A DNA stretch of 64,000 nucleotides from Amphiscolops sp. MND2022 (GCA_964187785.1 OZ076409.1:7566001-7630000), one strand, 5' to 3'. Counted from the first letter of the stretch, positions 11,610 through 44,770 are shown. The notes: generated by a model from the letters alone, not told the origin. Numbers and translations are program-made.

Positions 11610-11723
<114 letters not shown>

Positions 11724-15197: not shown

Positions 15198-15203
15198 GGT
15201 TTC

Positions 15204-15425: not shown

Positions 15426-16415
15426 CATTACAGTTCATCTGCAAGCCTTTTCTGAGCGTTTTGCGGAAATGAGGACACGAAATCTCGGAAACCGGGACAC
15501 GTGCACTGAATTCATTCCCCTTTGATGTCGACTGCCTTAGCTTCCTTTGAAGTTGAAATCTTACTTTCCGCATTTTTGTGTCTTGGCAAGTTAATGGGGC
15601 CAATTAATTGCCACTTATGCCAGGCTTCAATAGGGCCAATTATGTAGAAAGCAAATAGTGCAACGTGTCTCAGATTCCAGAGTTTTATTCAGTAGAGTAA
15701 TTCGTACACCTACATTCCGGAACAATTATAAAGTGTTTCCGCATTTTATCTCTTGAAATCAGATGAAAATTGCTAGAAAAGATAATGTTCGGAAACAAAC
15801 TTCTGTTAAATGAAGCTTCATGTTTTGACCCACAATTGGAACCAAAAAATCTCCAAGTTTCACACCAGTTATTTCATTAAAATTTTCTTTTTTTTTTCAA
15901 TTACAATTGGTAGAAAAGTAAGCTTTTTTATTAGGATGGTTTTTTCCATTAAATCCCCCGCAAACCCTTCCCCCCACAGTATGCGCAGAAATTTTTTATC
16001 CCCACCAATATCAGCGATGAAGTCGAGCTATAAAATACTGTTATTTGATTGATTGTTACTATTAATTCAATGATAATTTTTCTCGACCGCCTAACTGAAG
16101 TGGAATAGGAAGGTGGGGGGAATTAACAGAAAAGATGCGTAAGCATTTTTTCTAACTCTTTTCTAATATAATAAGACTGTAGATTTCGGTATCAAGTTCG
16201 GTTGGAAACAAAGGTGTCAATTCTTTATTCAATAGAGGCTATAATGCTCAGGAAGATCTCAAAAGTAAGCGTTGGTTGGAAAAGAACAATAATTAATTAT
16301 TCAAACTACCAAACAGTATCAAACAACGGCTAGATTTTTTGCATTTTTTCAAGGCTATTTGGAATACATTCAATGGTAAAAATATAGAAAAAACAGTCTC
16401 TCATTTCTAAATAAT

Positions 16416-16488
16416 TGCCGTTAGCGGGATCTGAACCCACGATCTCACGATCGGAAAGCTAGCGCGCATCCTATTTGGCCAACGGGTC
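16416..16488 (-). pseudogene. tRNA-like sequence (tRNA pseudogene or SINE head)
   Basis: A-box-like TGGCCAAATAGG and B-box-like GGTTCAGATCCC at tRNA spacing; imperfect stems. Confidence 0.55.
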
Positions 16489-16898
16489 TTCTTTTTGAAC
16501 GATATCTATTTGCTAATAAACTAAATGTTTTCGCTGCGTCAAATAGAGCAATTTATTCGCTCGATTATGCGCTTTAATGCGGATTCTCAACAATACGGGC
16601 TCGTTATGTGATTTTAAGCAGTCACTCATGCTGCCTTGAATAATTATCACGTTGATAGAATACTATTTTTGATAGGTCACGACAAACAATTACGTAACTA
16701 CGAGATTTACGTTATTCTGAAAGTACTCTATTCCGAAGTTCAACTCTACTAAGTAATTGAATTATGACGATTCAACCCACAATTGGAAGCAAAATATCTT
16801 CACTTGCATTCTATGTGTCATTTTGATGACGGCCCAGTGGTTAATGATCAGGTTCATCAAACAAAAGTTTATATATGTGTTCTATGCAACGGCATAAC

Positions 16899-17150
16899 GG
16901 GGATGGTGGCGCAGTTGATAAGGCGAGTAGTGAAGCTTGAGGCGTAGTCTGTCACCGGATCGAACCCCATCAAAACACTCTGCAGGGTGATTCTATACAG
17001 ACAACACTGTCTTCCACCAGATCTATCCGGTAAAAGACTTTAGAGGGCCTAATTGAAGATCCACTGCGCTACTGAATCACTTTTTTCTGTGTGGCAGTTC
17101 ATCCTGTCTGAGAATGTCTGAGAAGACTCGCTATATTAAATCAAATTCAA
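16899..17150 (+). mobile_element. Putative tRNA-derived SINE
   Basis: GGGGATGGTGGCGCAGTTGATAAGGCG (A box) ... GGATCGAACCCC (B box), ~170-nt body, A-rich TCAAA tail. Confidence 0.6.
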
Positions 17151-17633: not shown

Positions 17634-20480
17634 TCAATTTTCCTCTTCCGATTCATCTGCAAGATTGTCACTGTTTTCTTTTCGTGGTTCTTGACTACCG
17701 CTGAAGCGACCGCTGGTGTTTCCAGAGCTGCTTCCTGACTGTGATTCACTAAACTCAGAGCGAGCTATCGGATCCTCGTAGTCGAACATTAACTGTTGGA
17801 AGGGATGGATTGTTTTACTTGCTCGGAGGACAACATAACGTTGATTGTTGTCGGCAAACACAATGACATCAGTGGACTTCATATTGGCTTCCAAAACTGA
17901 GTGATGGGCAAGGCGACCCATACATCTACTATCAGGGTGGACAGGACACGTTTCCGCGGAGGCATTGATTATCCTTCGGCCAGGTCCTTTGACTTCCAGA
18001 CAAAACTCCCGTTTAACACCTTCAATGGCGGAAACTTCGTCCATTGATGTCTTGAGGAAAACCTGCCCATGGTAATCAACGACGACTTCATTTTTCTGGA
18101 AAACTCGGGTGGCAACGATTCCCCTTCCAAACTTGCTAAAAAAACCTGCGTGACTCCGGGCCATTTTTGAGATCGACATCTCTCCATAAGCAAAGTTTGA
18201 TCTTCAAACTCCATATTGCTTGCCAATCCTTTGTAATAAATCTTCTGAATTGCTATGTTCGTTTCTACTTTTGGGGTAATAAACATTGGGAGCACAAGTA
18301 TATAAACTTTTCTCAGGTCTTGGTTGCCGTCATTCTGCGTCGTCCATTTCTGTCGCTGGAAATAGTTCTTCAGTCTCATTTCCAACGAAGCAAGGTCAGT
18401 TTTCCCATTCATATGCTTGAAAAGACATGGGCACAAGCTGATTGGCGGGCATATCTCTGTCGATCCTGGTGCCTTCTCACCGCCGACTGCACGATCTGGT
18501 AGTCCAAGGCAATGTCCAGAGTCGCCCAAATTGCTCTAGTCTGGACCTTCAACTTAGGGAGTATTGCTTCAGTGTCGTTTGCGATGGGCAACACAACATG
18601 AAGGTGCCGTTCCAATTCCCTAAGCGGGCTATCACAGTGTTTCAGTAATTGTTTGAAATGATACAAACATTGAATAGTGTCTATATGCATTCTGAATTAA
18701 TGATACCAACAATGTACGTGTCACTTAGATCGACCCCCAATTGGTACCAAAAACTAGCTCTACATTATAAATTGTCCCAGTTTCCACAATTTTTCAGTAT
18801 AATTTGACTTGCTCAAAGAATGCAAAGCGGAAAACAAGACCATATTTTTAAACACATGGCGTGGAAACCAGATACAAATCTTAATACCTTGCCAACATTC
18901 ACTCAAAGGGGTATACACATTATTGCGCGTTACCATGAATGTCCTAGTTTCCACGGTTTTAAGTTTGAATTGACTTACTCAAAGAATGCAATGCGGAAAA
19001 CAAGACCATATCCTTAAACACATGGCGTGGAAACCAAATACAAATCTTAATACATTGCGAACTTTCACTCTAAAGGGTATACACATTATTGCGCGTTACC
19101 ATGAATGTCCTAGTTTCCACGGTTTTAAGTTTGAATTGACCTACTCAAAGAATGCAATGCGGAAAACAAGACCATATCTTTAAACACATGGCGTGGAAAC
19201 CAAATACAAATCTTAATACATTGCGAACTTTCACTCTAAAGTGTATACACATGATTGTGCGTTACCATAAATGTCCTAGTTTGCACGGTTTTTGAGTATA
19301 AAATGGCTCGCTTTTAAAAGTCTTCGAGGAAAAAAAGACCATATCTTTGAACACATGGCGTAAAAACCGAATACAAATCCTAACTAATTGTTTTATTCAA
19401 GGGCGTGTGATGATGATTTGTTTTTACATACCGACTCCACATATTGGTCAACAACGTGGCTAGGTCGGAAGTTGGATTTCCCAGCTGAGTTCACAAAAAA
19501 CAATTCGGTGTAGAGGATCCGATTGTCTGTGTCACTCAGCAGTCTTTCGAAAGGAGTTCCCTCACCGTGGTCCAGAAACTCGTTTCGAACACTCACGAAG
19601 TAGTCCACAAAGCCTTCCAATAACCATGGTGGATAATGTAGCACGTTTTTCTGGCGCACCTCTCAGCTACATCTATCTCAAGCCCGAAAGAGGCATTTTT
19701 GTTGTCGCATTCTTTCATCTGAACTGCTGCCTGCGCCACGGCGTGGACAGTCACATTGCTGACCTCCCGATCCAGAAAACCCAAGAAAATTAGAACGTAG
19801 GCCAGTAGACTTCGAAAGAACTCTATTTGGACCTTTTTCGTAGCCAGAATGCTCTTTCTGCAACGCGATACATTCTCTGTTTTTGTCCATTTAATGAAGG
19901 ACTCCACTGTATCCGTTTTGTAATCAGGCTTCTTCTTCTTGGCGGGAACAGTCTAAAAAAGAGAGAGTTTTCAAAAAGTGTCCTAATTATCTTTGAAACT
20001 GATAACGGAATTAAAAAGTACATTGGCTTCTAGGAAACGTAACCCATGTTTCGAACGCAAAATTTGAACAATATCTATTCAGAAGTTTTACTACACTTAC
20101 CATATCAACTGGTGGGGGCATTGGACGTTTGCTTACTACATTATCGGAGCTTGCATGTCCATTCGACTGTTTTGGAGGAATTATAATCTCAGCTAGTAAT
20201 TCGCTCTGAATGTATAAAAACTCGTTTATGACCTCTTCAGCTTCAGTCGGGAGATGTTCCGTTATTATTCCATCCTCATTGAAGCTGAATTCATGTGGCT
20301 CTTGGAGGCGGAACGGAGTGCTGTTGAGTGGCCCGCCGGATGTTTGGCTAAACATCACGGGCGATAAAGGGCGTGAACAAACCAGAAGGAGTTTGCATTT
20401 GGGTTAACGTCAGAGGCGTGGACATGTCCGCGGAAGCCGGTGTTGGAAGTGGGGGCATCGGCAAATGCAGCGAGGTTTTG
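17634..20480 (-). pseudogene. Multi-exon gene: tyrosine-recombinase-like domain followed by a PR-Set7/SETD8-like SET domain (frameshifted)
   Basis: SET: FGRGIVAT...VVDYHG...MGRLAHHS...ANMK...LRASKTIHPFQQLMFDY (17634-18179). YR-like: LLAYVLIFLGFLDREVSNVTV...LFFVNSAGK...FMLCCPSQTTLKQY. GT-AG intron ~19954-20100; second intron filled with 166-bp repeats. Confidence 0.8.
18780..19390 (+). repeat. 166-bp tandem repeat array (~3.6 units) in an intron of the SET gene
   Basis: TTTCCACGGTTTTAAGTTTGAATTGAC...AATGCGGAAAACAAGACC...; period 166 (repeated ORFs at 18820 and 18986). Confidence 0.95.
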
Positions 20481-20871
20481 TTTTGCTCCATTTAAGAAAG
20501 TTCGATTTTCTATTTTGACGGTCTGATTTTCAGAGACGATTTCAAGATATTGATTGTAGATTTCGAGTATTTGTTGATATGAATTACGATAATATCTGAT
20601 ATTTGGTAACTTGTAGTGCCATATCCGGCTGTGCAACCAAAAACCTCAGTCTTAAATGAGGCATGTAAAAAGCGTTATTACGGAAGGAGGCTAGTGTCTT
20701 CATTTTGCAATTATTCTTATTAGTGCAACTGCTCGGTAATTAGGTGACGATTAGCTGTAATTAATTTGGATTGCAACCAGTCTCGTTATCGTCTTCTTCA
20801 ACGCTCATCCCATCAACATTCACCACATAAGTTGTCTACACAATCTATTAGTTTCGAGCTTTAAGTTAAAA

Positions 20872-22260
20872 ATGCTTCTCCAAACATTCTATGAAAATGA
20901 AGTTGTGCAAATTTTGGATCCTGCGACATCAATTTGGGAATCAGCGAAAATACTTTCCTTTGTGAGCGATTGGTGTGTAAGAATTAAATGGGTCGATTGG
21001 TCTTACAATAAAAACGAAGATATCACTGTTCCCGAAGTATACAGACCTGAAAAAAAACTGGAACATTAGAAAATCACACAATCTTGTACACCAAGAAACT
21101 GTGAGCAACAAAAGACGATCAACACCACTTAGCTACAACGCTCGTCGACTGGTCAGAAACGATCAAATTTACTTTTGGCAACCAGAATATAATTGTGAAG
21201 ATAGCGAAAGATGCCAAGAGGACCGTTGCTGCGGGTCAGTTGTGATGGGTTGGGTAAAAATTAATGATCCTTTCTGTCAACAATGTTTGACAACCGACGT
21301 GGAGGACAATGATGAGTATGTTTCGTATCGCCAACTAAGAAATAAACCTTGTGTAAGAGACACTGAACCAGAAACTGATGAAACTGAACAAGATGAAGAA
21401 TCAGGATCTGACGTACATCGCCCATTCGTCAAAAAGCAAGCCCGTGTGACAAGCGCCGCACAACCGATGCCACAAGTCGACATTCTTTCCTTGCTTCCCA
21501 ATGTTGACGATGACGTTGAATTAACATATGCACCCTGTGAAAATGATATCATAAAGGTAATGTTTTCTTGCTTTTTTGCTTACAAACTTTGCCTTTGAAC
21601 TTTGATAACCCTGGATTGGCACCAATTTTTTCAAAGTATTTTTCCCACCTAATATTTGTTTAATCATTTTGTTTTCAGGTGGGATCTATTGCATCTTACG
21701 CAAATGATGATTTTAAAATCAAGAAGGTTTACTATGATGTTCAGAAGAGAAAAGCATGTGCATTCATGCAGAGCAAAAGTGCCCTGACAATGAAGTGCGC
21801 AGACCAACAATTCGTGTTGTGACAACAACATCTTCTAAAGGCAATGTAATGGATTTTAATTCGCTTCTGGAGCCCATGGACCAAGCCTATGCTTTGTTTT
21901 CTGCAAAAAAACGACTGGGCGGGATTCTCAAGAAAGAAGCATTCCTTAACCGCAACATTAGGTCCCTGTACCCCACTGACAAAAAAACTCTGTGGCTTCG
22001 AAACTGGCAATTTCAAAGAGGCCGTTAAGTATAGTGTTGCAAACCAAGAGGGACATAATTGGTGCAACGGTACATGGGATACTGTACTTGAAAGAAACTA
22101 GGATATGATCCCATGTCACGCAAGCGATGGAAAAGATGTTCTTATAAAGACAATGAGGTTCACTGAACATCGAGAATTTGGCGTGTTCACGATTCGTGTC
22201 CAGTTTTTGACGAGCCAAGGCCACTACAAAAACAGCCAATATAGAGATCTGAGTCGGAAT
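20872..22260 (+). pseudogene. Intron-containing gene with an N-terminal Tudor/Royal-family-like domain, decayed
   Basis: EVVQILDPATSIWESAKILSFVSDWCVRIKWVDWSYNKNEDITV fits a Tudor/Agenet/MBT beta-barrel pattern; acidic linker; GT-AG intron ~21557-21678. Confidence 0.55.
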
Positions 22261-22554
22261 GTACCTGTCTCAGATCCATGAAATACTCTAAAAAACTCCT
22301 AAATTTTAAAAAACTTTTTCAATTCGTGTTTGATCATATTTTGTTTGTTCAACAATTCATCTTTCATCATTATTAGTAATTATTACAATATGAGCTCCAT
22401 GACCTTGTATTCTTGAAAATTCTTGAGCAAAGTCTTAGACTATCGAATTACTTTTTTCTGAAAGCATATGATTAACAAGGCACTTGTCACGTATAGATCA
22501 ACCCCTGATTGGTACCAAAAATGATACAATCTCAGCTATTTCCGGGATTTTACT

Positions 22555-23000: not shown

Positions 23001-23096
23001 GTGTAGTCATTGTTTTCAGGAAATATTCAAACAATTTTTGTTTTTCTTTTTTCAATACTTTTTGAGTATTTTCAATCAGATAACACTTTACAAAGA

Positions 23097-26000
23097 TGAA
23101 ACAAACAGTCCTAAGAAGTGAAAACTTCTAATTACGAGTGAGAAGACTTAATGGAGGACTCTTGTGCATCTGATTGTGATTATTGACAAAATGGCTTTGG
23201 GTGATATGGACTCAAATTATCGAATTATTTGAACCGTTCTTCATCAGTTTAATGAAGAGACTCAAAACCGGACTCATTTTACTTGTGGGTTTGTGTATCT
23301 AATTGCATTTCATTTTTTTCTATGGAAAGGTTGTCAGTCTGAAAAATGTTCTACAATCAATACAATTTCACTTTGCAATAAACCTAAAAACCAGCTTTAG
23401 AAATGACTCCACTGTCAATTTGGGAAAGGAATTCTATCGAAGTGGAAAATGGGAAACTCTTCGCTAACTGTCGACTTTTTGACAGTTTTATATCCGGAAA
23501 AAAAATACCGAATAAGTTTCGGAAGTTCGAGACACTTGTTGGGGAAATGTTGACGGGGACAAATTTAAATCCAAAAGAATTCTTTCGGAGAATTGCTGTT
23601 AAAGGCCAGAAAACCCCCCCTGTATTTGTAGCAGCAAAATTGGCAAAACTACTTGTACTGCGTGGATTTAAAGACTTCCCTTGGAGCTCAGCCAGAAGAG
23701 AGTTTGTCAGTTTGTTTTTCAATATTGATGTCATACCAAATCACAATCCTTAAATGAAAGACACCCTTGCGACACCTGCAGATGTGACTCCTGGAGATGC
23801 GGCTTCTGAAGGTCAAGTCAGTGACAATTCTCTCTCAAAAGAAAGAAAGCTAGAAAAATCAGACGCCAAAAAAGTCAAACATGAACAAATTGATCCAATT
23901 AGAACAGATCCGATGTCAGAAGTTGGGTTCAACAGTTTCATGAAAAAAATCAAAAGCTCTGCAAATAAGAATAAAGATCAACGATTCACAAAAAAGAGGA
24001 CCCAAACTTAGTCAAAAAAATTGTAGAAGATCTCTTCGACAAAAGAAGATCGACTGATTAGTTCAGTCACCATTTATCTCTTGTCACGAAAACGGGTAAC
24101 ACGGAAGATGTTATAAAAGTTATTCGAACAAGACTTTAAAATGTTGGACTCGGATACAATTTAGTCCCATGCATTCGATTGGTCAAGAGGTCATCATCCG
24201 AAATTCAGTCCTACTTTACAGCAATGTGTGAGCCAGGAAGAACTTTCTCTGGTTTTCGCTGCAACCTCATAAAATGCGTGGAGACGGTGTCATACTTCTT
24301 ATTTGGAACGAAAGAACTCAATGGCCAACGAGTTGATATTTGGGGAGATGGTTGTGAAATTGGAGGTGTCGAAACAACACGAATTGCATTCCGGATACTT
24401 TCTGACAAAATAAAGTGTCAATCATCAGATGCAGTATTCTGTTTTGCTGCATACAGGGGTAAAGATGGAAGGTTCGCAATGGAACAAAACCATGAACCAA
24501 CTATAGCTGGAGTTCAAGAGTCTGGTTGGCTTTTTATGAAGACCCTGGAACTGTCAAAACGCGGAGTTGTTTTGACATACAGTGGCGATTCGCCGTTTTT
24601 AAAGAGATTGGTGCTCCGTATCACAAATGAATCAGCTAGCCCATCGAAAATGCCACTCTATGTAATGTAACAGAACTTGACTACACAACAACAAAATGTC
24701 ATCATGAAACTGGTTTACGATCTGATGTTATTATACCCTTCAGAAAGGATGTTCCAAAATCTTCCTTGGTCTTCTACGAAAATATACAATCAGTTTGTCC
24801 TGATGCCACGCATATGACAACCCGTTGTGTTGAAAATGACCTCCAAAGAATTGCACAGAAAATTATCAGAGAAAAGTATCCTAATCATGGTGTAGCAAAT
24901 CGCCAGCTTGAAGAAAACTTGACAAGAAGAGATGCGAAGAGACCATACTTTCAGTTCAACATATCTCATAGAAGTGGTTCGTGTATCGGTACTGTAGGTG
25001 CAGTATCCCTCGCAGGTGGTAGTGCTCTAGCGGTCATTGCTGATAAAGAGGAACTTGCAGGTGCGAAAGACGGTAAAATTAGTGATCTTTACCATGGTGT
25101 TTGGGTCCCGAAGATATCATTGTTGGCAGTGAAAAAAACGCAAATGTCCCTTGCGTTAATATCATAAGAAACTGGCTTCCTAAACTTTTCAATAAAGATA
25201 ACCTCAAGCAAAAAGGGTCCAATGACAAATTCATATCTGCTTTTGATGCTTGCGAACTCCTGCGATCGAGTTTAAATCAATGTGTTTTATGTCTGCGAGC
25301 AGAAGAATTCAACAGTGAAACGTTCAAAAAATGGGCTGAAGTTTATTACCAAGTCAATATCTTGATAATCGGGCATGCCGGTTTGACACCCTATAAATTG
25401 AAAATGCTGATGTTTCCTCAACTTGTTGAAAGTGGATACATAAAAAGACCATTTGATCACTTGTGTGAAGGTCTTGAAAAATCGAACCACCAAGCTAATC
25501 GTGGCTTCCAGACGAAAACAATGCGCGGAGGGGGTAAGATTTATCGCAAGGGACCACTATTCCTCGAGTCGTCTTTTTCTTTCTTGAAATTTTTAAGATT
25601 CGCAGTTGAAGTTGAAGACAAAGGGTCGGACGCTGAACCAACTTCTAAGATTATCATGGAACCTGAACAAAACGCAACAACAGAGGTCTACTTTGATGAC
25701 CATAATGTGACTGGAAACAAAGAACTATCAGACAGTTTCGAAAAGTACTTGAAACAGCGTAATGAGTATACTTCATAGTGCAACAAAAGTGATGGGCATT
25801 GACGTTCCGGGACCTGAGTACCTTGATATTTGCCGCAAAGAACCACCGGTAACAACTATCGCCATTGAATGTCAAGAAAATCCTTTGAGTGGATTAAGAT
25901 TTTGTCTGCTTTGTCGCTTGGGTACTTGGAAAAAACATACTCTAACATATGACATGGTGAAACAATTGATTATCAATATGGGAGGAACTGTTCTAGAAAA

Positions 26001-26445
26001 TGAACAAGCTGACGTGTTGATGAGCACCCATTCACAGCTCCCCAATTGTTTTGTTCTTGTCAAGGACGAAAAAGACCTAATCTTAGGTACCGGTTCCACA
26101 GAGGAAATTAACGATATGAAGAAACCAAGGAAAAGAGGGTCATCAGCAACACAGGAGGGTGGAAATGAACCATCACAATATTCCAAAATAGCGAAAGAGT
26201 TCGCAGCTGGGGGCTTCAAATTCTTGAACATCGATTTTGTAGCTGAAGTTGACGAGAAAAAAATGCTGATTGACCCGGAGCCATACTTTCTTCAGCCCGG
26301 ATCCAAACTTGTTGAAAATCGTGTCAACGACAAAAGACCTTTGTTTTTGGATCAATGCAGTGGAAAAACACTGGGTGAAAGTGTATCTGCGATTGTCGCT
26401 CTCAAGAGATACCGTGAGGGCACTTTTAAACAACTTTCGTTTTGA
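23097..26445 (+). pseudogene. DDE transposase (CMC superfamily; Chapaev/Transib/RAG1-like motifs) with a C-terminal BRCT-like domain, frameshifted
   Basis: VDIWGDG (D1 ~24347), LTYSGDSPFL (D2 ~24587), CPDATHMTTRCVE, LTPYKLKML...CEGLEKSNH (E ~25476). BRCT-like: PLSGLRFCLL...VKQLIINMGGTV...FLNIDFVAE...IDPEPYFL. 5' boundary approximate. Confidence 0.8.
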
Positions 26446-31345: not shown

Positions 31346-34300
31346 CTGTAACAATTTGAAAATGTGAATTGCAAAAGAGTAAATATCAAGAAATTTAAAT
31401 TATTTCAAATAACAAAGTCAAAATTGTTTACGAGAAAGTTTGGATCTTTCCGGTTCATCCCCCCATCGATTTAAGTCCCCCAGTAGTGATTAATCGAAAG
31501 TTTTATGAATTAACTTTTAAAAAAGTATTCCGGTTCATCCCCCCATCGATTTAATTCCCCAGTATTTATTAAATAAAAGTTCTATAAATTAACTTTTTAA
31601 AAAGTATAAAAGTATATCATTAAACATATATTTTTTGGAAGAGAATCTGCGTAAAACAATTTGAAAGTTATCAGGACACTGTTCGAAAAAACTGCCTTGC
31701 ACTTTGAACCAGAATCTGCTTCTAAATTGTAAAATCAATTACAGTACGGGGGCTTTTGTAACGACCCGAAGGGGCAGTTGATTTTAAACTGATAGTTTTT
31801 TGATAAACTCCAAAAACAGTTTCTGGGAATTTGGGATTAAAATTGAAACAAGTAGAAGTCAAGAGAATTGTTGGATTGTGAAAGATTTTGGGCATAAAAG
31901 TGTCTAATTTTTTTCTGTGAACTCAAAATCTTTCTAGTTTGTTTTTTGAAGTTTTCATTCTCATATTATTTGATCTGATCTTATTGGGGATTCCATTTGG
32001 CCCAAGCTTGGAACCAATCTTTAAGAAATCCATAACCAAAATCAATTTAAAAACAATTTTTCAACCAATAATTTATTTCCGAAAACGAATATATCAACTT
32101 TCCATTATGATTGGCTCCGGGTTATATCCGGTGATTAGCTGAGTTTATTTTCGGCTGCTGGCTGTTGGGTGTCTGCTAAACTTTGAGTTGTTAATGAGAG
32201 ATTTTAAGATTTGGCTTGTTAATGAGATTGAGAGAGTCAGTTAACAGTACAGTCTGAACGGTAGGAAAACAAGTTCGACAATGAAAACAGCCGGTCGGTC
32301 AGTTGATGTGCGTGATACGCGCGAATGATACGAGCCGCTGATTAGCCAATAGGAATCACCCAAATGGAACAGTCATGTTTGATACGAGTTTCTGTTACGC
32401 GCCGCTGATTATCAAGGAAAATACTCACGATTGTAACAGTTATGATTTTGATACGAGCCGCTGATACCCGACGCTGGTAAGCCACGGTTGAAACTGTGAA
32501 CTTTCAAGCGATGACCGATAAGGCAATTATAATCATCAGGGGTGCGCATTATTGTATTTATATTTATTGATACGACTTCACCAAAAAATAATAGTCAAAA
32601 AGTATAGTTGTTTGTTTTTGAAAATAGAACAGTATTCTTGAAGAAAATAAAGTTGGTGTGCTAGTTAAGTTTTGTTACTTACGTAGTGTCGTTCTCAGCA
32701 TTTGACCATCTTTCAAAAATGCTGAGATTTTTTTTCGACGGTTTCACTAAAAAGAAAATCTTCTCTCCAGTTAGAACTGTGTAAAACACAGACGTCGAAG
32801 AATAATCCTGATGCCACGTCGTGTGCGCAGAATCTTGAGTGACCAGGACATAATAGGAAGTAGAACAAGAATAAGGCTCGGTTCTCGACTTACGATTTCC
32901 CTGTCGGCCAAGTGGTTGATGGAGTTGTCAGCCACCATCTCGGGTACTGTGTATATGGCCTTGGGGAGTGTCCTGACATCGATGACGTTTAAAGGGTAAT
33001 ATTGACTGCCTGGATGACAGTTGGCCAGCTCCACGAAAAACTCTTCATACGTCATTTCTCGTGTCTGTAAAAACATCTATTAAATGATGATGCTAGGCAA
33101 TGTTCTAATTCATGTTATCAACAGTGTACTTGTCACAGGTAGATCGGCCCTGGATTGGTACCAAAACGAACTCGACATAACTGTCCCAGTTTCCACGGAT
33201 TTTCAGTATAATTTGACTTGCTCAAAGAACACAATGCGGAAAACAAGACCATATCTTTAAACACATGGCGTGGAAACCAAATACAAATCTTAATACATTA
33301 CGAACTTTCACTCTAAAGGGTATACACATTATTGCGCGTTACCATGAATGTCCTAGTTTCCACGGTTTTAAGTTTGAATTGACTTACTCAAAGAATGCAA
33401 TGCGGGAAACAAGACCATATCTTTAAACACATGGCCTGGAAACCAAATACAAATCTTAATACATTACGAACTTTCACTCTAAAGGGTATACACATTATTG
33501 CGCGTTACCATGAATGTCCTAGTTTCCACGGTTTTAAGTTTGAATTGACTTACTCAAAGAATGCAATGCGGGAAACAAGACCAATTCTTTAAACACATGG
33601 CGTGGAAATAAATACAAATCCTAATACATTGCAGAACCTCACTTGAAGGGGTATACCCATGGTTTGTGTTTTGGAAAAACTAAATTTGTTTTTTCACTAA
33701 ATGCTAAACATGGTTCAAACGAGTAGGAAGTGTTTTTTACCTCTCCGATTCTGGCTGACTTGACTTCAATTGGAGCATCAGGTTCAGCAAAGTTGACCGG
33801 TCGCAGAAGCCGTTTGATCTCCGCGACGAAGCCTTTTTTCGCGTAGAATTTTTGGACTTTCAGTCCTCTGCAGTGCTTGGCTCCGTTTCTCCAAATCAAG
33901 GGGACACCATGTCGAAGAAGATGACCAAGGTGTTCGGTTTGATTGTCATGGGGACCCTGCCACTCAGCGTAGGAAAATCGACAATCCAGAGGCACGTTTC
34001 CGCAAAACGCGAAGTGCTCTTGGGTGCCAAATGGGGCCGCTGGAGTCCCAGAATTGAATGTCAAATCAAGTGGCATCGGTGGTTGGGCAATTTGACATTT
34101 GACTCATCTCGCGATGTGGTTCCTCAGGCTGTACCCGTACCCGAATGAGGTCCCACACGAAACGCACAAGTGACGGCTTCTTCTTTTTCCTCTCGCAGCT
34201 TCTGTAATTTCAAAGACATTTTTTTCAAATGAATTTCGGAAATCTTTTCTTTCATGAATTTCTTTTTTAGTATGACCCATGATTGGAACCAAAAATCTTC

Positions 34301-37300
34301 CAAAGATTTCATGAATGCTTTCATGGTATGACCCATGATTGGAACTGAAATCCTTTCCAAAAAATTGTGTTTTTTAGACCTTCCCTTTCACATCAGAAAA
34401 ACATTTTCCTTCTTTTTTCTATTGCATACGATAATCGGTTCAAGACCGTGAAATATTTCAAAACATGAACAAACAAAGTCCTGGAAACAATCTGAACACT
34501 AACGGTATTGGTACATTCTAACTTTTTCTCCAGCAGCAATCTTTTCTTGTTGTTTCGTGCAGTATTTGGTTCTTCTTTGATAGCGCTCTTTACTTTTTTT
34601 TGTGAAAATCTGACCACATTTCTCGCACGTCAAATTCTGGGCAACTTGTTCCTGCTTGCTGACACTTTTGCATCCCGGAAGATGACGGGTTAAGTGCCAT
34701 TTCTTCCAGCAACGTAGTCGCAATTCGGACACGGGAAACCTAAAGCCTTTTGAATTATACGAGATGAAGAACTCAAATAAAAAACCATACCTATACATAC
34801 AAAATACATACCAAAATCAGATTGTTTTCCACGAGTTACAAATTTGATAGGTTTCATTTAGATTGCTCAAAACTTTGAAAAATGGTATACATGATATACT
34901 GATCCACGTGATGTTTGATTTGTCAAACTTTTTATCAATCCAGTTTCAATTACAAAAAAAGGGAGATTGTCGCTTGTTTAATTGTCAAAACGAGAACAAG
35001 AACGAGTGAATGGAAGTCTTACGTTTTTTAGGTGGCGGAGTTGTATCTCGAAATTCGTCACAGAGTTGTCTTTTTCGGTTTTCTGGCAAACCAGGGCAAG
35101 TGCGGGCATGAACAGAAAGGGCTTCTCGAGTGGGGGCATAATGGTCGCAAGCACCGATTGTGCAGAGATGACGTGAATGACAAAACAAAGATGAAAATAT
35201 ATACAATAAATGAAGACTCATACACAGGGGTGTTCGAGCCATATTTGCGTGAAAATTATTGGCAATTAAGGGATTCAAATAGAGGATTGGAAGTACCGAA
35301 TTAATGGAAAAAGTTGAAAGACGCCCTCAAATTTTACCATAATTACCATGGCATATTTCAATTCTGCAAACGAAGATAAATGAATCTGTTCTAAAGTATA
35401 AAAAACTCCTTTTTTGAACACCCCTGTTCATACAGCCTCAAAATTTCAATACAAATAAAACCAGAACAAAGTAAAGAAACGTTCATCAAAACTTCAAACA
35501 TGTTTCACATTCGCAGTTGAATTTACCCGTTTCAGCAGTTTGATAGTTTTTGACCTATTTCACTGATAGTCAAGAAAAAGTAACTCAGAAATTAACAACT
35601 TACCAAGGGACAGTTCTGATGATGAGTCAGATGAGTCCATGCGGGATCTAAAGATCTGAGAAGTGCTGGGTCCGCTGGGTCCGGCAGCTTGCTCATAAGT
35701 ACTTGCAGGTGTTTTCTTCGATTTCGGCTGTAACAATTTGAAAATGTGAATTGCAAAAGAGTAAATATCAAGAAATTTAAATTAGTTCAAATAACAAAGT
35801 CAAAATTGTTTACGAGAAAGTTTGGATCTTTCCGGTTCATCCCCCCATCGATTTAAGTCCCCTAGTAGTGATTAATCAAAAGTTTTATGAATTAACTTTT
35901 AAAAAAGTATTCCGGTTCATCCCCCCATCGATTTAATTCCCCAGTATTTATTAAATAAAAGTTCTATAAATTAACTTTTTAAAAAGTATAAAAGTATATC
36001 ATTAAACATATATTTTTTGGAAGAGAATCTGCGTAAAACAATTTGAAAGTTATCAGGACACTGTTCGAAAAAACTGCCTTGCACTTTGAACCAGAATCTG
36101 CTTCTAAATTGTAAAATCAATTACAGTACGGGGGCTTTTGTAACGACCCGAAGGGGCAGTTGATTTTAAACTGATAGTTTTTTGATAAACTCCAAAAACA
36201 GTTTCTGGGAATTTGGGATTAAAATTGAAACAAGTAGAAGTCAAGAGAATTGTTGGATTGTGAAAGATTTTGGGCATAAAAGTGTCTAATTTTTTTCTGT
36301 GAACTCAAAATCTTTCTAGTTTGTTTTTTGAAGTTTTCATTCTCATATTATTTGATCTGATCTTATTGGGGATTCCATTTGGCCCAAGCTTGGAACCAAT
36401 CTTTAAGAAATCCATAACCAAAATCAATTTAAAAACAATTTTTCAACCAATAATTTATTTCCGAAAACGAATATATCAACTTTCCATTATGATTGGCTCC
36501 GGGTTATATCCGTTGATTAGCTGAGTTTATTATCGGCTGCTGGCTGTTGGGTGTCTGCTAAACTTTGAGTTGTTAATGAGAGATTTTAAGATTTGGCTTG
36601 TTAATGAGATTGAGAGAGTCAGTTAACAGTACAGTCTGAACGGTAGGAAAACAAGTTCGACAATGAAAACAGCCGGTCGGTCAGTTGATGTGCGTGATAC
36701 GCGCGAATGATACGAGCCGCTGATTAGCCAATAGGAATCACCCAAATGGAACAGTCATGTTTGATACGAGTTTCTGTTACGCGCCGCTGATTATCAAGGA
36801 AAATACTCACGATTGTAACAGTTATGATTTTGATACGAGCCGCTGATACCCGACGCTGGTAAGCCACGGTTGAAACTGTGAACTTTCAAGCGATGACCGA
36901 TAAGGCAATTATAATCATCAGGGGTGCGCATTATTGTATTTATGTTTATTGATACGACTTCACCAAAAAATAATAGTCAAAAAGTATAGTTGTTTGTTTT
37001 TGAAAATAGAACAGTATTCTTGAAGAAAATAAAGTTGGTGTGCTAGTTAAGTTTTGTTACTTACGTAGTGTCGTTCTCAGCATTCGACCATCTTTCAAAA
37101 ATGCTGAGATTTTTTTTCGACGGTTTCACTAAAAAGAAAATCTTCTCTCCAGTTAGAACTGTGTAAAACACAGACGTCGAAGAATAATCCTGATGCCACG
37201 TCGTGTGCGCAGAATCGTGAGTGACCAGGACATAATAGGAAGTAGAACAAGAATAAGGCTCGGTTCTCGACTTACGATTTCCCTGTCGGCCAAGTGGTTG

Positions 37301-40300
37301 ATGGAGTTGTCAGCCACCATCTCGGGTACTGTGTATATGGCCTTGGGGAGTGTCCTGACATCGATGACGTTTAAAGGGTAATATTGACTGCCTGGATGAC
37401 AGTTGGCCAGCTCCACGAAAACTCTTCATACGTCATTTCTCGTGTCTGTAAAAACATCTATTAAATGATGATGCTAGGCAATGTTCTAATTCATGTTATC
37501 AACAGTGTACTTGTCACAGGTAGATCGGCCCTGGATTGGTACCAAAACGAACTCGACATAACTGTCCCAGTTTCCACGGATTTTCAGTATAATTTGACTT
37601 GCTCAAAGAACACAATGCGGAAAACAAGACCATATCTTTAAACACATGTCCTGGAAACCAAATACAAATCTTAATACATTACGAACTTTCACTCTAAAGG
37701 GTATACACATTATTGCGCGTTACCATGAATGTCCTAGTTTCCACGGTTTTAAGTTTGAATTGACTTACTCAAAGAATGCAATGCGGGAAACAAGACCAAT
37801 TCTTTAAACACATGGCGTGGAAATAAATACAAATCCTAATACATTGCAGAACCTCACTTGAAGGGGTATACCCATGGTTTGTGTTTTGGAAAAACTAAAT
37901 TTGTTTTTTCACTAAATGCTAAACATGGTTCAAACGAGTAGGAAGTGTTTTTTACCTCTCCGATTCTGGCTGACTTGACTTCAATTGGAGCATCAGGTTC
38001 AGCAAAGTTGACCGGTCGCAGAAGCCGTTTGATCTCCGCGACGAAGCCTTTTTTCGCGTAGAATTTTTGGACTTTCAGTCCTCTGCAGTGCTTGGCTCCG
38101 TTTCTCCAAATCAAGGGGACACCATGTCGAAGAAGATGACCAAGGTGTTCGGTTTGATTGTCATGGGGACCCTGCCACTCAGCGTAGGAAAATCGACAAT
38201 CCAGAGGCACGTTTCCGCAAAACGCGAAGTGCTCTTGGGTGCCAAATGGGGCCGCTGGAGTCCCAGAATTGAATGTCAAATCAAGTGGCATCGGTGGTTG
38301 GGCAATTTGACATTTGACTCATCTCGCGATGTGGTTCCTCAGGCTGTACCCGTACCCGAATGAGGTCCCACACGAAACGCACAAGTGACGGCTTCTTCTT
38401 TTTCCTCTCGCAGCTTCTGTAATTTCAAAGACATTTTTTTCAAATGAATTTCGGAAATCTTTTCTTTCATGAATTTCTTTTTTAGTATGACCCATGATTG
38501 GAACCAAAAATCTTCCAAAGATTTCATGAATGCTTTCATGGTATGACCCATGATTGGAACTGAAATCCTTTCCAAAAAATTGTGTTTTTTAGACCTTCCC
38601 TTTCACATCAGAAAAACATTTTCCTTCTTTTTTCTATTGCATACGATAATCGGTTCAAGACCGTAAAATATTTCAAAACATGAACAAACAAAGTCCTGGA
38701 AACAATCTGAACACTAACGGTATTGGTACATTCTAACTTTTTCTCCAGCAGCAATCTTTTCTTGTTGTTTCGTGCAGTATTTGGTTCTTCTTTGATAGCG
38801 CTCTTTACTTTTTTTTGTGAAAATCTGACCACATTTCTCGCACGTCAAATTCTGGGCAACTTGTTCCTGCTTGCTGACACTTTTGCATCCCGGAAGATGA
38901 CGGGTTAAATGCCATTTCTTCCAGCAACGTAGTCGCAATTCGGACACGGGAAACATAAAGCCTTTTGAATTATACGAGATGAAGAACTCAAATAAAAAAC
39001 CATACCTATACATACAAAATACATACCAAAATCAGATTGTTTTCCACGAGTTACAAATTTGATAGGTTTCATTTAGATTGCTCAAAACTTTGAAAAATGG
39101 TATACATGATATACTGATCCACGTGATGTTTGATTTGTCAAACTTTTTATCAATCCAGTTTCAATTACAAAAAAAGGGAGATTGTCGCTTGTCAATTGTC
39201 AAAACGAGAACAAGAACGAGTGAATGGAAGTCTTACGTTTTTTAGGTGGCGGAGTTGTATCTCGAAATTCGTCACAGAGTTGTCTTTTTCGGTTTTCTGG
39301 CAAACCGGGGCAAGTGCGGGCATGAACAGAAAGGGCTTCTCGAGTGGGGGCATAATGGTCGCAAGCACCGATTGTGCAGAGATGACGTGAATAACAAAAC
39401 AAAGATGAAAATATATACAATAAATGAAGACTCATACACCGGGGTGTTCGAGCCATATTTGCGTGAAAATTATTGGCAATTAAGGGATTCAAATAGAGGA
39501 TTGGAAGTACCGAATTAATGGAAAAAGTTGAAAGACGCCCTCAAATTTTACCATAATTACCATGGCATATTTCAATTCTGCAAACGAAGATAAATGAATC
39601 TGTTCTAAAGTATAAAAAACTCCTTTTTTGAACACCCCTGTTCATACAGCCTCAAAATTTCAATACAAATAAAACCAGAACAAAGTAAAGAAACGTTCAT
39701 CAAAACTTCAAACATGTTTCACATTCGCAGTTGAATTTACCCGTTTCAGCAGTTTGATAGTTTTTGACCTATTTCACTGATAGTCAAGAAAAAGTAACTC
39801 AGAAATTAACAACTTACCTAGGAACAGTTCTGATGATGAGTCAGATGAGTCCATGCGGGATCTAAAGATCTGAGAAGTGCTGGGTCCGCTGGGTCCGGCA
39901 GCTTGCTCATAAGTACTTGCAGGTGTTTTCTTCGATTTCGGCTGTAACAATTTGAAAATGTGAATTGCAAAAGAGTAAATATCAAGAAATTTAAATTAGT
40001 TCAAATAACAAAGTCAAAATTGTTTACGAGAAAGTTTGGATCTTTCCGGTTCATCCCCCCATCGATTTAAGTCCCCTAGTAGTGATTAATCAAAAGTTTT
40101 ATGAATTAACTTTTAAAAAAGTATTCCGGTTCATCCCCCCATCGATTTAATTCCCCAGTATTTATTAAATAAAAGTTCTATAAATTAACTTTTTAAAAAG
40201 TATAAAAGTATATCATTAAACATATATTTTTTGGAAGAGAATCTGCGTAAAACAATTTGAAAGTTATCAGGACACTGTTCGAAAAAACTGCCTTGCACTT

Positions 40301-41167
40301 TGAACCAGAATCTGCTTCTAAATTGTAAAATCAATTACAGTACGGGGGCTTTTATAACGACCCGAAGGGGCAGTTGATTTTAAACTGATAGGTTTTTGAT
40401 AAACTCCAAAAACAGTTTCTGGGAATTTGGGATTAAAATTGAAACAAGTAGAAGTCAAGAGAATTGTTGGATTGTGAAAGATTTTGGGCATAAAAGTGTC
40501 TAATTTTTTTCTGTGAACTCAAAATCTTTCTAGTTTGTTTTTTGAAGTTTTCATTCTCATATTATTTGATCTGATCTTATTGGGGATTCCATTTGGCCCA
40601 AGCTTGGAACCAATCTTTAAGAAATCCATAACCAAAATCAATTTAAAAACAATTTTTCAACCAATAATTTATTTCCGAAAACGAATATATCAACTTTCCA
40701 TTATGATTGGCTCCGGGTTATATCCGTTGATTAGCTGAGGGTATTATCGGCTGCTGGCTGTTGGGTGTCTGCTAAACTTTGAGTTGTTAATGAGAGATTT
40801 TAAGATTTGGCTTGTTAATGAGATTGAGAGAGTCAGTTAACAGTACAGTCTGAACGGTAGGAAAACAAGTTCGACAATGAGAACAGCCGGTCGGTCAGTT
40901 GATGTTCGTGATACGCGCGAATGATACGAGCCGCTGATTAGCCAATAGGAATCACCCAAATGGAACAGTCATGTTTGATACGAGTTTCTGTTACGCGCCG
41001 CTGATTATCAAGGAAAATAGTCACCATTGTAACAGTTATGATTTTGATACGAGCCGCTGATACCCGACGCTGGTAAGCCACGGTTGAAACTGTGAACTTT
41101 CAAGCGATGACCGATAAGGCAATAATAATCATCAGGGGTGCGCATTATTGTATTTATATTTATTGAT
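28367..41167. repeat. Tandem triplication of a ~4.2-4.4 kb unit holding the promoter and 5' exons of the ZF-JmjC gene
   Basis: Units start at 28367, 32580 and 36962; ORF offsets 4213 and 4382; near-identical; unit 2 has one extra 166-bp repeat. Confidence 0.97.
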
Positions 41168-44127
41168 GCGATACAATAAGTAATTTTATTGCTAAAACTA
41201 ACCAATAAACAAGTGTAAGACTTGTTTAAAAAAATTATGGTATATATTACATAACGAATAATTTAGTTTATTTATTATTTTCATAAATTCTTCATAAATA
41301 AGTTATTCATAGTGAAAAGCTTTCTAAAAATTATTTTTTGTAATAATTTATTGATCGTCCAATAGATTTTGATTAATTTTGCTCAGATTCGACCCACGAT
41401 TGGAACCAAAATCTCTCCATTGCTCCACTCTAATCATTCAAATAAATTTTTCATTTTCCAGTATAAATTAAAATTTATTCCAGTATAAATGTAGTATTTC
41501 ACTCTTGTGTATCACTGTAGTATAAAAATATTCCAATATGATATAGTATAGTGAACATTATAGTTAAGTATAGTACACGTAACCTGAATCTTTTCAATTG
41601 CATTCTAATTGACTATTTCAATCAAATTTTGTTTTTATTTATCTAAACAGCTTTACAATTCGACCCACCATTGGAACCAAAATCTCCCGATTTCCACTAT
41701 TTTTTTTAAATTAAAATTTTATTTTTAAATTAATTTCTTCTAGCTGGTATAAATGTATTTCACTATTGTATATAACTATATACAATCAGTATAAATATTT
41801 TCCACTATAGAAAAAGAAATTTTTCTTTTTGATTTTTTCAATTTCATTTTCAAATTTCATTTTTTCAAATTTGGAACGAAAATCTCCCGACATCCACTAA
41901 TTTTTTAAATAAAATTTTCATTTTAAAAATAATTTACCCGTTTCAGCAGTTTGATAGTTTTTGACCTATTTCACTGATAGTCAAGAAAAAGTAACTCAGA
42001 AATTAACAACTTACCAAGGAACAGTTCTGATGATGAGTCAGATGAGTCCATGCGGGATCTAAAGATCTGAGAAGTGCTGGGTCCGCTGGGTCCGGCAGCT
42101 TGCTCATAAGTACTTGCAGGTGTTTTCTTCGATTTCGGCTGTAACAATTTGAAAATGTGAATTGCAAAAGAGTAAAAATCAAGAAATTTAAATTAGTTCA
42201 AATAACAAAGTCAAAATTGTTTACGAGAAAGTTTGGATCTTTCCGGTTCATCCCCCCATCGATTTAAGTCCCCCAGTAGTGATTAATCAAAAGTTTTATG
42301 AATTAACTTTTAAAAAAGTATTCCGGTTCATCCCCCCATCGATTTAATTCCCCAGTATTTATTAAATAAAAGTTCTATAAATTAACTTTTTAAAAAGTAT
42401 AAAAGTATATCATTAAACATATATTTTTTGGAAGAGAATCTGCGTAAAACAATTTGAAAGTTATCAGGACACTGTTCGAAAAAACTTCCTTGCACTTTGA
42501 ACCAGAATCTGCTTCTAAATTGTAAAATCAATTACAGTACGGGGGCTTTTATAACGACCCGAAGGGGCAGTTGATTTTAAACTGATAGTTTTTTGATAAA
42601 CTCCAAAAACAGTTTCTGGGAATTTGGGATTAAAATTGAAACAAATAGAAGTCAAGAGAATTGTTGGATTGTGAAAGATTTTGGGCATAAAAGTGTCTAA
42701 TTTTTTTCTGTGAACTCAAAATCTTTCTAGTTTGTTTTTTGAAGTTTTCATTCTCATATTATTTGATCTGATCTTATTGGGGATTCCATTTGGCCCAAGC
42801 TTGGAACCAATCTTTAAGAAATCCATAACCAAAATCAATTTAAAAACAATTTTTCAACCAATAATTTATTTCCGAAAACGAATATATCAACTTTCCATTA
42901 TGATTGGCTCCGGGTTATATCCGTTGATTAGCTGAGGGTATTATCGGCTGCTGGCTGTTGGGTGTCTGCTAAACTTTGAGTTGTTAATGAGAGATTTTAA
43001 GATTTGGCTTGTTAATGAGATTGAGAGAGTCAGTTAACAGTACAGTCTGAACGGTAGGAAAACAAGTTCGACAATGAGAACAGCCGGTCGGTCAGTTGAT
43101 GTTCGTGATACGCGCGAATGATACGAGCCGCTGATTAGCCAATAGGAATCACCCAAATGGAACAGTCATGTTTGATACGAGTTTCTGTTACGCGCCGCTG
43201 ATTATCAAGGAAAATAGTCACGATTGTAACAGTTATGATTTTGATACGAGCCGCTGATACCCGACGCTGGTAAGCCACGGTTGAAACTGTGAACTTTCAA
43301 GCGATGACCGATAAGGCAATAATAATCATCAGGGGTGCGCATTATTGTATTTATATTTATTGATGCGATACAATAAGTAATTTTATTGCTAAAACTAACC
43401 AATAAACAAGTGTAAGACTTGTTTAAAAAAATTATGGTATATATTACATAACGAATAATTTAGTTTATTTATTATTTTCATAAATTCTTCATAAATAAGT
43501 TATTCATAGTGAAAAGCTTTCTAAAAATTATTTTTTGTAATAATTTATTGATCGTCCAATAGATTTTGATTAATTTTGCTCAGATTCGACCCACGATTGG
43601 AAACAAAATCTCTCCATTGCTCCACTCTAATCATTCAAATAAATTTTTCATTTTCCAGTATAAATTAAAATTTATTCCAGTATAAATGTAGTATTTCACT
43701 CTTGTGTATCACTGTAGTATAAAAATATTCCAGTATGATATAGTATAGTGAACATTATAGTTAAGTATAGTACACGTAACCTGAATCTTTTCAATTGCAT
43801 TCTAATTGACTATTTCAATCAAATTTTTGTTTTTATTTATCTAAACAGCTTTACAATTCGACCCACGATTGGAACCAAAATCTCCCGATTTCCACTATTT
43901 TTTTAAATTAAAATTTTATTTTAAATTAATTTCTTCTAGCTGGTATAAATGTATTTCACTATTGTATATAACTATATACAATCAGTATAAATATTTTCCA
44001 CTATAGAAAAAGAAATTTTTCTTTTTGATTTTTTCAATTTCATTTTCAAATTTCATTTTTTCAAATTTGGAACGGAAATCTCCCGACATCCACTAATTTT
44101 TTAAATAAAATTTTCATTTTAAAAATA
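39735..44127. repeat. Second tandem duplication, 2197-bp unit
   Basis: ORF pairs 40535/42732 and 41008/43205 are both offset by 2197; junction at ~41931. Confidence 0.95.
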
Positions 44128-44770
44128 ATTTATTCCAGCTGGTATAAATGTATTTCACTATTGTATATCACTATATACAATCAGTATAAATTTTTTCCCC
44201 TATAGTAAAGTGTTGAAAGAAACGTTCCTTTTTCGTTTTTTCAAATTCATTTTCAAATTTCATTTTTTCAAATTCAAATGCAGTTGGTATAATTGTGGTA
44301 CCATAATATAGTAGTATAGTATAGTATAGATGAAAGGAAGAGAAGTCGACAGTTTTACGGAAAGGGAGACATTGATTGTAACTTGTTTGTGGTAATTGAC
44401 TTTGTATTTACTCTCTGGTTTATTAAATTTGATTTCAGCAAATTAAAATGTAAGTGGAAACAAATACGCTAAAATTTGCAGGCATCTGATTGGTTGTAAT
44501 GCACTTTGTGGAATACGAGACACGAACTTGTCGGCATCGTGTCGGCATTAGTCGGCATCTTTTTGGTCCCAGTTTCCGCATTTTGAAACCGGCTAACGTA
44601 TTAACCCATGCCCTCGGATTCCGAAAAACGCCGCTTTTCGTGGCGTGGATTAAGCAAAATCAGTGCTAAATTGCCAATTTTACACGTTTTAAGTCATGTC
44701 TGCGGAATCGGAGGACATACACGCACAGAAAAGTGTCTGTGGCGATTTAGCTTGCAGATGCACTGTAATG

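Follow-up and report, generated by a model that had tools for sequence, protein, structure and literature searches.

The RAG recombinase is a familiar point of contact between recombination and histone marks, the PHD finger of RAG2 coupling RAG1 to H3K4me3, and chromatin factors are also borne by mobile elements, retrotransposons with a DNA methyltransferase (DNMT) being a further case. Transposons that counter or use host chromatin with proteins of their own are known from scattered examples. As set out in PMC12730594, the HarbingerS and MuDR transposons of Phytophthora encode a SET histone methyltransferase (Kojima and Jurka 2014, as cited there), DNA transposons of fungi, including members of the CACTA-Mirage-Chapaev-Transib (CMCT) clade, encode TET/JBP dioxygenases, and VANC, encoded by the VANDAL elements (MuDR) of Arabidopsis, is an anti-silencing protein and a sequence-specific DNA binder. 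Here we describe a transposon in a stretch of 64,000 nucleotides from Amphiscolops sp. MND2022 (GCA_964187785.1, OZ076409.1:7566001-7630000), hereafter the window, whose positions are counted from its first letter. Positions 15426-44770 of the window are a dead, internally rearranged copy of an autonomous DNA transposon, which we call family A. Its four genes lie in the order gene 1 (an upstream region of no recognised fold joined to a SET domain, leftward), gene 2 (Tudor-like, rightward), gene 3 (the transposase, rightward) and gene 4 (zinc-finger exons ahead of JmjC exons, leftward). We think it probable that family A is an autonomous transposon with a fixed set of SET, Tudor-like, RAG1-fold transposase and JmjC/zinc-finger genes that acts on nucleosomal lysine methylation, and its gene content suggests an element that turns chromatin to its own advantage.

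Each of the described systems resembles family A in part. The Phytophthora elements share with it the property of being DNA transposons with a SET gene of their own; they differ in belonging to other transposase superfamilies, in having oomycete hosts and, in the cited description, in having no JmjC or Tudor-like partner. The fungal elements likewise carry a 2-oxoglutarate/Fe(II) dioxygenase, potentially an eraser of methyl marks, as a stable accessory gene, but the target described there is methylated DNA bases, whereas here the dioxygenase is a JmjC of the histone-lysine-demethylase type that is accompanied by a methyltransferase and a reader-like protein. VANC is an element-encoded factor that acts on the epigenetic state of its own element, which is also what our working model would have family A do; unlike the enzymes predicted here, VANC is a DNA-binding protein and not an enzyme. 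The full-text literature that we searched yielded no transposon in which SET and JmjC occur together, nor one with a Tudor-like partner, although a prior Repbase entry is possible.

Gene 1 lies on the minus strand, and its last exon (17655-18696), which encodes a SETD8-like SET domain and bears frameshifts and one stop in this copy, was mapped from an intact copy of about 17.8 kb on contig 2. Pfam identifies SET on positions 17637-18203 of the minus strand (expectation value (E) 5.3e-9), and the 354-residue open frame of the contig 2 copy (P0002) matches SET PF00856 with an E of 1.5e-10 (41.8 bits against a cut-off of 22.4). The nearest solved structures to P0002 are those of SETD8/KMT5A (E 2e-5), with the GRG, NHS and FDY motifs aligned, and homologues down to 43% identity keep the motifs GRG, DYHG, RLANHS and FDY. 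The C-terminal part of gene 1 is thereby supported as a SETD8-like SET lysine methyltransferase, with an activity predicted from sequence. Further exons upstream (19396-20491, minus strand) were mapped from the intact copy, from a sister family (family B) and from homologues. Because one open frame in family B spans this upstream region and the N-terminal region of SET, and because predicted proteins of relatives join the two as well, we assign these exons to the same gene as the SET domain. A preliminary description of the locus had called them YR-like; the region has no match in Pfam, a best PDB match of E 1.6 and no lead in the protein-language-model Atlas, and we have dropped that name.

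Gene 3 (23391-26442, plus strand) encodes the transposase, with at least five stops and additional frameshifts in the window; it was mapped by way of the intact 1017-residue frame of the contig 2 copy (P0001), and its assignment draws on the predicted fold, the Atlas and conserved acidic residues. P0001 has 44 unnamed homologues in our protein collection (28-97% identity), and a profile search of 1.84 billion proteins returned 630 representative clusters, the best 150 of which are all close relatives and give no bridge to a named superfamily. An AlphaFold model built from 33 sequences has a predicted local distance difference test score (pLDDT) of 78, exceeding 90 in the core. A Foldseek search with this model retrieved the RAG1 core (5e-7, about 700 aligned columns), HzTransib (2.7e-4) and BbRAGL, the RAG1-like protein of amphioxus (4.5e-4), with far weaker matches to the P element (0.026) and Hermes (0.024-0.044). 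In the Atlas, cnidarian hypothetical clusters come first (0.95), followed by RAG1_RNase_H clusters (0.91-0.94), the nearest that bear a name. At the level of fold, therefore, the predicted transposase is nearest RAG1/Transib. Five acidic residues, D316, D320, D400, E692 and E695, vary little or not at all, and D470-x2-H473 is invariant; D316 and D320 lie on the first core strand, D400 just past the fourth, and E692 with E695 where a helix begins. Such a placement would suit a DDE (Asp-Asp-Glu) triad in an RNase H fold with a large insertion domain, from which we infer the catalytic assignment. The C-terminal domain of the model alternates strand and helix. Pfam reports BRCT_2 for five homologues in one set of 15 (best E 2.8e-4) and for three in another set of 15, always below the cut-off of 27.3 bits, and reports no BRCT match in P0001 itself; a BRCT-like tail on the transposase is plausible from these sequences. 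Of the DDE transposase with BRCT that had been proposed, the transposase stands, with a RAG1/Transib-like predicted fold and conserved D/D/E candidates, and the BRCT part is confined to sub-threshold matches in homologues.

CACTA/EnSpm elements have CACTA termini and a 3-bp duplication, and Mirage elements a duplication of 2 bp. The family A element ends in CATTA and has a target-site duplication (TSD) of 2 bp. The wider CMCT clade is characterised, in PMC12730594, by mostly CA..TG termini, duplications of 2-5 bp, a resemblance to RAG1, and C(2)C and H(3-4)H motifs. Family A is like the clade in its CA..TG termini, in a TSD within the range of 2-5 bp and in the RAG1/Transib-like predicted fold, and it is unlike the clade in having no CACTA or RAG1 Pfam match, in its CATTA terminus and in that C(2)C and H(3-4)H are not evident. 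In particular, the second cysteine of the CxxC at residues 630-633 of P0001 is kept in only 5 of 32 sequences, and the conserved C468/H473/C478 and H689/H699 have spacings other than those two motifs. Because of the CA..TG ends, the 2-bp duplication and the RAG1-like predicted fold, the element fits in or beside the CMCT clade, and we do not call it a CACTA element; the earlier label of CACTA-like thus holds loosely, for the wider clade, and does not extend to a match with the CACTA transposase models of Pfam, Transposase_21 and Transposase_24. RAG1/RAG2 and ProtoRAG/Transib have a RAG1-like catalytic fold in common with family A and, in the case of RAG2, a chromatin reader associated with the recombinase (its PHD finger, where family A would have a separate Tudor-like protein), but no RAG2-like gene was seen in family A, its TSD is 2 bp whereas that of RAG/Transib is 5 bp, and it has no Pfam RAG1 match.

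Gene 4 is encoded on the minus strand at 27105-28863, where its JmjC exons were mapped from the intact copy and by their PHF8/KDM7 matches: the last exon at 27105-27518, the exon with the second histidine at 27877-28305 and the HxD exon at 28469-28863. The JmjC exon of the intact copy matches PHF8 with an E of 6.6e-12, and also KDM7, PHF2 and KDM2A; the HQD of the element is aligned to HID, the H-x-D iron ligands, and the 2-oxoglutarate lysine of GEKIF is kept. The next exon is colinear, with its second histidine aligned (Caenorhabditis elegans KDM7 homologue, E 1.1e-3). C2H2 zinc-finger exons lie upstream (29349-31399, minus strand, first copy), and on the equivalent exon of the intact copy zf-C2H2 PF00096 is above threshold (E 4.4e-7). 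Host KDM2/7 enzymes carry PHD, CXXC or F-box domains as accessories; on the open frames scanned, none of these was matched in Pfam, and C2H2 zinc fingers occur instead. Gene 4 is therefore supported, from its sequence, as a KDM2/7-type JmjC dioxygenase with predicted demethylase activity and retained metal-binding residues, in keeping with the KDM2/7-type JmjC first proposed. As a side observation, the JmjC exon gave 1395 candidate matches in the genome at first look, in at least three classes (84-100% identity; about 70% along the whole exon; 69-73% along a shorter part of it), and element-borne JmjC genes appear to be very numerous.

Gene 2 (20791-22275, plus strand) consists of exon 1 at 20791-21595 and exon 2 at 21667-22275, the latter with stops. 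Its fold was examined through a full-length homologue that is 67-69% identical (P0152), modelled with 19 aligned sequences. The model contains two barrels, at residues 1-70 and 85-160 (pLDDT 70-88), and several Trp and Tyr residues are conserved in the first. Among representative structures, MTF2 is the top match (Z 7.8), followed by PHF19, TDRD3, SMN, TDRD1/4, 53BP1 and UHRF1; the top matches of the barrels are Tudor, Agenet and PWWP domains (Z 6-7.8), and BAHCC1 is among the tandem Tudor matches. Foldseek retrieved the triple Tudor of SETDB1 (5e-4), the N-terminal tandem Tudor of FMRP (7e-4), UHRF1 and plant Agenet pairs, with values ranging from 5e-4 to 1e-2. We regard gene 2, with moderate confidence and on the strength of the model, as encoding a tandem Tudor/Agenet-like module.

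Taken as a working model, the transposase would excise and insert the element, and the accessory proteins that the element encodes would work on the lysine methylation that nucleosomes bear at its copies or close to them, with the zinc fingers or the Tudor-like barrels supplying the targeting. The JmjC protein may take away a methyl mark that is repressive or related to repair, and the SET protein may lay one down, with the outcome that copies would be kept transcribed or that chromatin would be made permissive for excision, repair or insertion. The simplest version is counter-silencing, in which a demethylase guided by zinc fingers would strip a repressive mark at repeated internal sites. Repeats of 166 bp occur in tandem in the intron or spacer that separates the SET exon of gene 1 from the exons upstream of it (18773-19383, from self-comparison), and related units lie at about 22.6-23.0, 26.7, 29.0, 33.2-33.7 (33182-33660) and 37.5-37.9 kb, so that every gene pair of the element has units between its members or inside it, and the 17.8-kb copy has them in matching positions; in gene 4 they sit between the zinc-finger and the JmjC exons. 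A 14-bp motif, GAYTGGWACCAAAA, occurs 14 times (allowing at most one mismatch) between window positions 15834 and 43880, against 0.2 expected. All of its copies are on the plus strand and inside the element, several adjoining the 166-bp repeats or lying in both subterminal regions, and the motif is a candidate protein-binding or regulatory site. Both the 166-bp repeats between genes and the 14 copies of this motif are repeated internal sites of the kind that the model calls for.

The identity of the nearest relatives of these proteins invites a different reading of the same genes, namely that the kit serves transposition itself, steering cutting, insertion or repair of the excision break, and not anti-silencing. 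SETD8 is the H4K20 monomethylase, the writer of H4K20me1, PHF8/KDM7 erases H4K20me1 among other marks, tandem Tudors such as that of 53BP1 read it, and BAHCC1 is an H4K20me1 reader. That the SET domain is nearest SETD8 and the JmjC domain nearest PHF8/KDM7, that 53BP1 and BAHCC1 are among the tandem Tudor matches, that the fold of the transposase is nearest RAG1/Transib, and that homologues of the transposase give BRCT-like matches (5/15 and 3/15) all speak for such a role, and together the relatives of a writer, an eraser and a reader and the BRCT-like tail on a RAG1-fold transposase suggest a possible link to break repair or target choice, which we rate below counter-silencing. The names of the nearest structures do not, however, fix substrates at such divergence, and the BRCT matches are sub-threshold; we think it unlikely that the kit serves the transposition reaction in place of anti-silencing. 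In a more far-reaching form, which we put forward tentatively and consider doubtful, a clade of RAG1-fold transposons would long have had a self-contained methyl-lysine circuit, made up of a SETD8-like writer, a PHF8/KDM7-like eraser and a tandem-Tudor reader, that works with a BRCT-bearing transposase and ties cutting, the repair of breaks or insertion to a chromatin mark which the element itself sets and clears. If true, transposons would have arrived independently at something comparable to the way in which the PHD finger of RAG2 links RAG1 to histone marks.

We probed the genome with the DNA of the SET exon, gene 2, the transposase and the JmjC exon, and scored the best 40 of 104, 109, 145 and 106 candidate matches, respectively (93-100% identity). 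These matches fall at 64 loci, and where several probes match on a single strand they always follow the order SET, gene 2, transposase, JmjC; all four probes match at 11 loci or more, among the matches listed. Local duplications are present at a few of the 64 loci, and one locus (C279) mixes strands, probably because it holds two adjacent copies. Multi-copy probes in fixed order argue that the cargo genes are neither single-copy host genes nor separate nested elements. Nor are the six full copies that were fetched free of the cargo: the four blocks are present in them, in the same order and between the same ends, and each block has about 100 or more candidates in the genome. The four genes and their order were thus as first described, in the window and in the fetched copies alike.

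The gene set extends beyond family A. A homologue of the transposase, P0009, has 98%-identical counterparts in this genome, present in many copies whose intact frames measure about 1175-1200 residues; we call these copies family B. In a 27-kb stretch of family B the transposase is 54% identical to that of family A, gene 2 is 43-64%, the upstream region of gene 1 48-56% and SET 46-50% identical, and the pair formed by gene 2 and gene 1 is inverted relative to family A. The second exon of SET has a stop in the matched frame there and was excluded from the SET alignment. Two family B copies, both ending in CATTACAGTGCACAGGCAAGC, agree at 98.8% along 19 kb. The JmjC and zinc-finger exons of family A have no match in the 27-kb stretch, which does not reach the left end of the element; of 41 transposase loci of family B, 31 are accompanied by a JmjC exon (69-73% identity) that lies at most 25 kb upstream on the same strand, at a distance of about 13-19 kb in 29 cases, and some of the 10 loci without it are on short contigs. 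In family C, the transposase is about 75% identical to that of family A, and a JmjC exon of about 70% identity lies downstream on the opposite strand at 11 of 12 loci. The gene set is therefore old: families B and C keep JmjC beside the transposase, and family B also keeps SET, the region upstream of it and the Tudor-like gene. In other assemblies, homologues of the transposase, of SET and of gene 2 occur on contigs of equal length, a hint of linkage to which we give no weight. Some further features of family B were noted in passing. Its element is more than 19 kb long, probably more than 33 kb, its transposase within C3:52531001-52558000 (an intact frame of 1201 residues) has 39-bp tandem repeats, in frame, near the N-terminal third, and a family A copy on contig 13 contains, within its transposase region, a 1-kb element whose ends are of the family B type (CATTACAGTGCACAGGCAAGC).

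Selection was examined by comparing a young subfamily of the contig 2 type with nine other family A copies, so that all values of the ratio of nonsynonymous to synonymous substitution rates (dN/dS) share one reference copy and are based on small counts for the short exons. The dN/dS was 0.20-0.34 for SET and 0.25-0.41 for the transposase, and 0.3-0.85 for most of the JmjC exon comparisons. The full 1017-residue transposase frame is free of stops in 8 of 45 scored matches, six of which are about 100% identical and at different loci, and the flanks of the copies on contigs 2 and 3 differ; near-identical intact copies of this kind, with different flanks, indicate that part of family A moved very recently. 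We weighed the alternative that the accessory genes are passengers, captured once from the host by an ancestral element and copied without use. Capture of host genes by DNA transposons is common, as the gene fragments carried by Pack-MULEs and plant CACTA elements attest, and within family A the dN/dS of gene 2 and of the zinc-finger exon is close to 1, as would be expected of passengers. What family A carries, however, are whole domains and not fragments, with catalytic motifs kept and exon frames open in most scored copies; the SET gene has a dN/dS as low as that of the transposase; and the genes have been retained, in spite of re-ordering, across families whose transposases are 54-75% identical. 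We therefore consider passengers a quite improbable account. Since the cargo genes are shared with sister families and the dN/dS of SET is low, they are better seen as genes long held by the element than as recent captures, and the proposal in the preliminary description that they are element-specific cargo and not recently captured host exons is borne out by their conservation in many copies.

Several points nevertheless weigh against the reading of family A as a transposon that acts on nucleosomal lysine methylation. Substrate specificity cannot be read at identities of 10-30%, and the gene models consist of open frames together with predicted proteins of relatives, the zinc-finger and JmjC exons being likely, and not certain, to lie in one transcript. 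By sequence, the transposase gave chance-level matches only in PDB, both as a single sequence and as a profile, and no transposase match in Pfam, whether for P0001 (E at most 0.05), for 15 homologues (E at most 1) or for 15 more (E at most 0.01). Support from hidden Markov models is uneven: SET is above the Pfam threshold, but JmjC was recognised by PDB sequence search, Pfam giving only a sub-threshold Cupin_8 (E 0.0015-0.008). The JmjC of family B was placed by match coordinates. The description of gene 2 as Tudor-like holds for its predicted tandem barrels, which are nearest the Tudor family, and not for its sequence, which has no match in PDB or Pfam; the fold scores are middling (Z below 8), NusG KOW and myosin SH3-like barrels are among the matches, and outside the barrels the model of the homologue is of low confidence (pLDDT 51 overall). 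Finally, dN/dS reaches 0.5-1.2 for gene 2 and the zinc-finger exon, and one JmjC value is 1.44.

The ends of the element are well defined. The left terminal inverted repeat (TIR), CATTACAGTTCATCTGCAAGC, lies at 15426-15446 on the plus strand, and the right TIR, the reverse complement of CATTACAGTGCATCTGCAAGC, at 44750-44770 on the minus strand; the two agree in 20 of 21 bases, and GT stands directly outside both (15424-15425 and 44771-44772). Genome-wide (1.07 Gb, at most three mismatches), the 21-mer of the end has 1530 forward and 1526 reverse matches, a count that takes in the ends of family B as well, and the reversed 21-mer, used as a control, has 4 and 1. Many of the matches are inverted pairs only 0.2-2 kb apart, which look like short non-autonomous derivatives, and others are 6-18 kb apart. 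Both flanks of the window element are parts of a LINE-like (long interspersed nuclear element-like) repeat, and at 28 paralogous sites (39 non-self matches were listed per flank) the left and right flanks are joined directly, with an overlap of exactly 2 bp. These are empty sites, and the whole interval is therefore one precise insertion that duplicated 2 bp. A TSD of 2 bp is present in seven of seven full copies, counting the window, and differs in each of the six fetched copies (ta, tc, aa, tt, gg and tg), whose terminal inverted ends are identical. The 21-bp TIRs beginning CATTA and the GT duplication noted at the outset are thus confirmed and, with inverted ends, a duplication of fixed length, a precise empty site and a transposase with a predicted RNase H fold, the window element is a cut-and-paste DNA transposon. 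There is virtually no chance that the 29-kb interval is instead two solo ends that came by accident to flank nested elements or host genes unrelated to them, as the abundance of the end sequence (about 3000 matches) and a region full of other transposons might have suggested, because the blocks, their order and the ends recur in six fetched copies, all of which have matching 2-bp duplications, the window and the 17.8-kb copy are colinear, and the window insertion has 28 precise empty sites. Separately, TIR bases 4-10 (TACAGTG, window 15426-15435) resemble CACAGTG, the heptamer of V(D)J signal sequences and of Transib ends, offset by three bases from the tip, a resemblance that may be due to chance.

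The window copy, at 29,345 bp, is not of typical size. When ten related copies were fetched as 20-kb stretches, both ends lay within six of them and one end within the other four. The six full copies measure 17,980, 17,832, 17,512, 17,856, 17,664 and 18,872 bp, the last of which holds a nested 1-kb element, and the canonical family A element is 17.5-18.0 kb long, with inverted ends of 21-22 bp (CATTACAG...) and a 2-bp target duplication. Apart from tandem repeats, the window element and the 17.8-kb contig 2 copy are colinear, as self-comparison and comparison with that copy show: the segment 12536-16531 of the contig 2 copy is present in the window three times in tandem (about 28356-41132), in copies of about 4.2-4.4 kb that are 98-100% alike and contain the HxD exon of JmjC, 166-bp repeats and zinc-finger exons, and a further partial duplication of about 2.2 kb (41931-44065) lies in the right subterminal region. 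The triplicated segment and the partial repeat argue that the length of 29.3 kb is a private rearrangement. The giant element announced at first is thus real for this copy but not for the family, the excess length having come from internal duplication. That the copy is decayed, as had also been said, is plain from stops or frameshifts in every one of its genes, SET, the transposase and JmjC included.

The surroundings of the element are rich in other repeats, and no host gene was recognised in the flanks scanned. Retroelements lie at 3-5902 (minus strand), 10223-11527 (plus), 12919-15203 (minus) and 50415-52655 (plus); they comprise a long terminal repeat-type gag (CCHC) with reverse transcriptase and RNase H, two LINE-like reverse transcriptase stretches, one of which, with an endonuclease, is the insertion target of the element, and another stretch with reverse transcriptase, RNase H and integrase. 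Inverted repeats of 102 and 80 nucleotides, about 80% identical and 40-42 kb apart, bracket the region (11848-12434 and 52981-54051), and a direct repeat of 91% identity is found at 12431-12560 and 46791-46920; these are probably copies of other repeats. The window also contains a perfect (TAG)38 microsatellite at 11610-11723, a 46-bp tandem array at 48803-48984 and, at 59916-60700, a cluster of a palindromic 11-bp repeat, ATCTTGCCAAG, with inverted arms of 31-59 nucleotides.

A single genome thus holds at least three related transposon families with a predicted histone demethylase beside a RAG1-fold transposase, and at least two of these have a SET gene and a reader-like gene as well. Because intact, near-identical and recently mobile copies are present, they form a natural system in which to ask what an element gains from writing or erasing histone marks. 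The arrangement is a new accessory-gene architecture for the clade of transposons that gave rise to the V(D)J recombinase, and would be of interest for the study of conflict between transposons and their hosts and of the origin of RAG.

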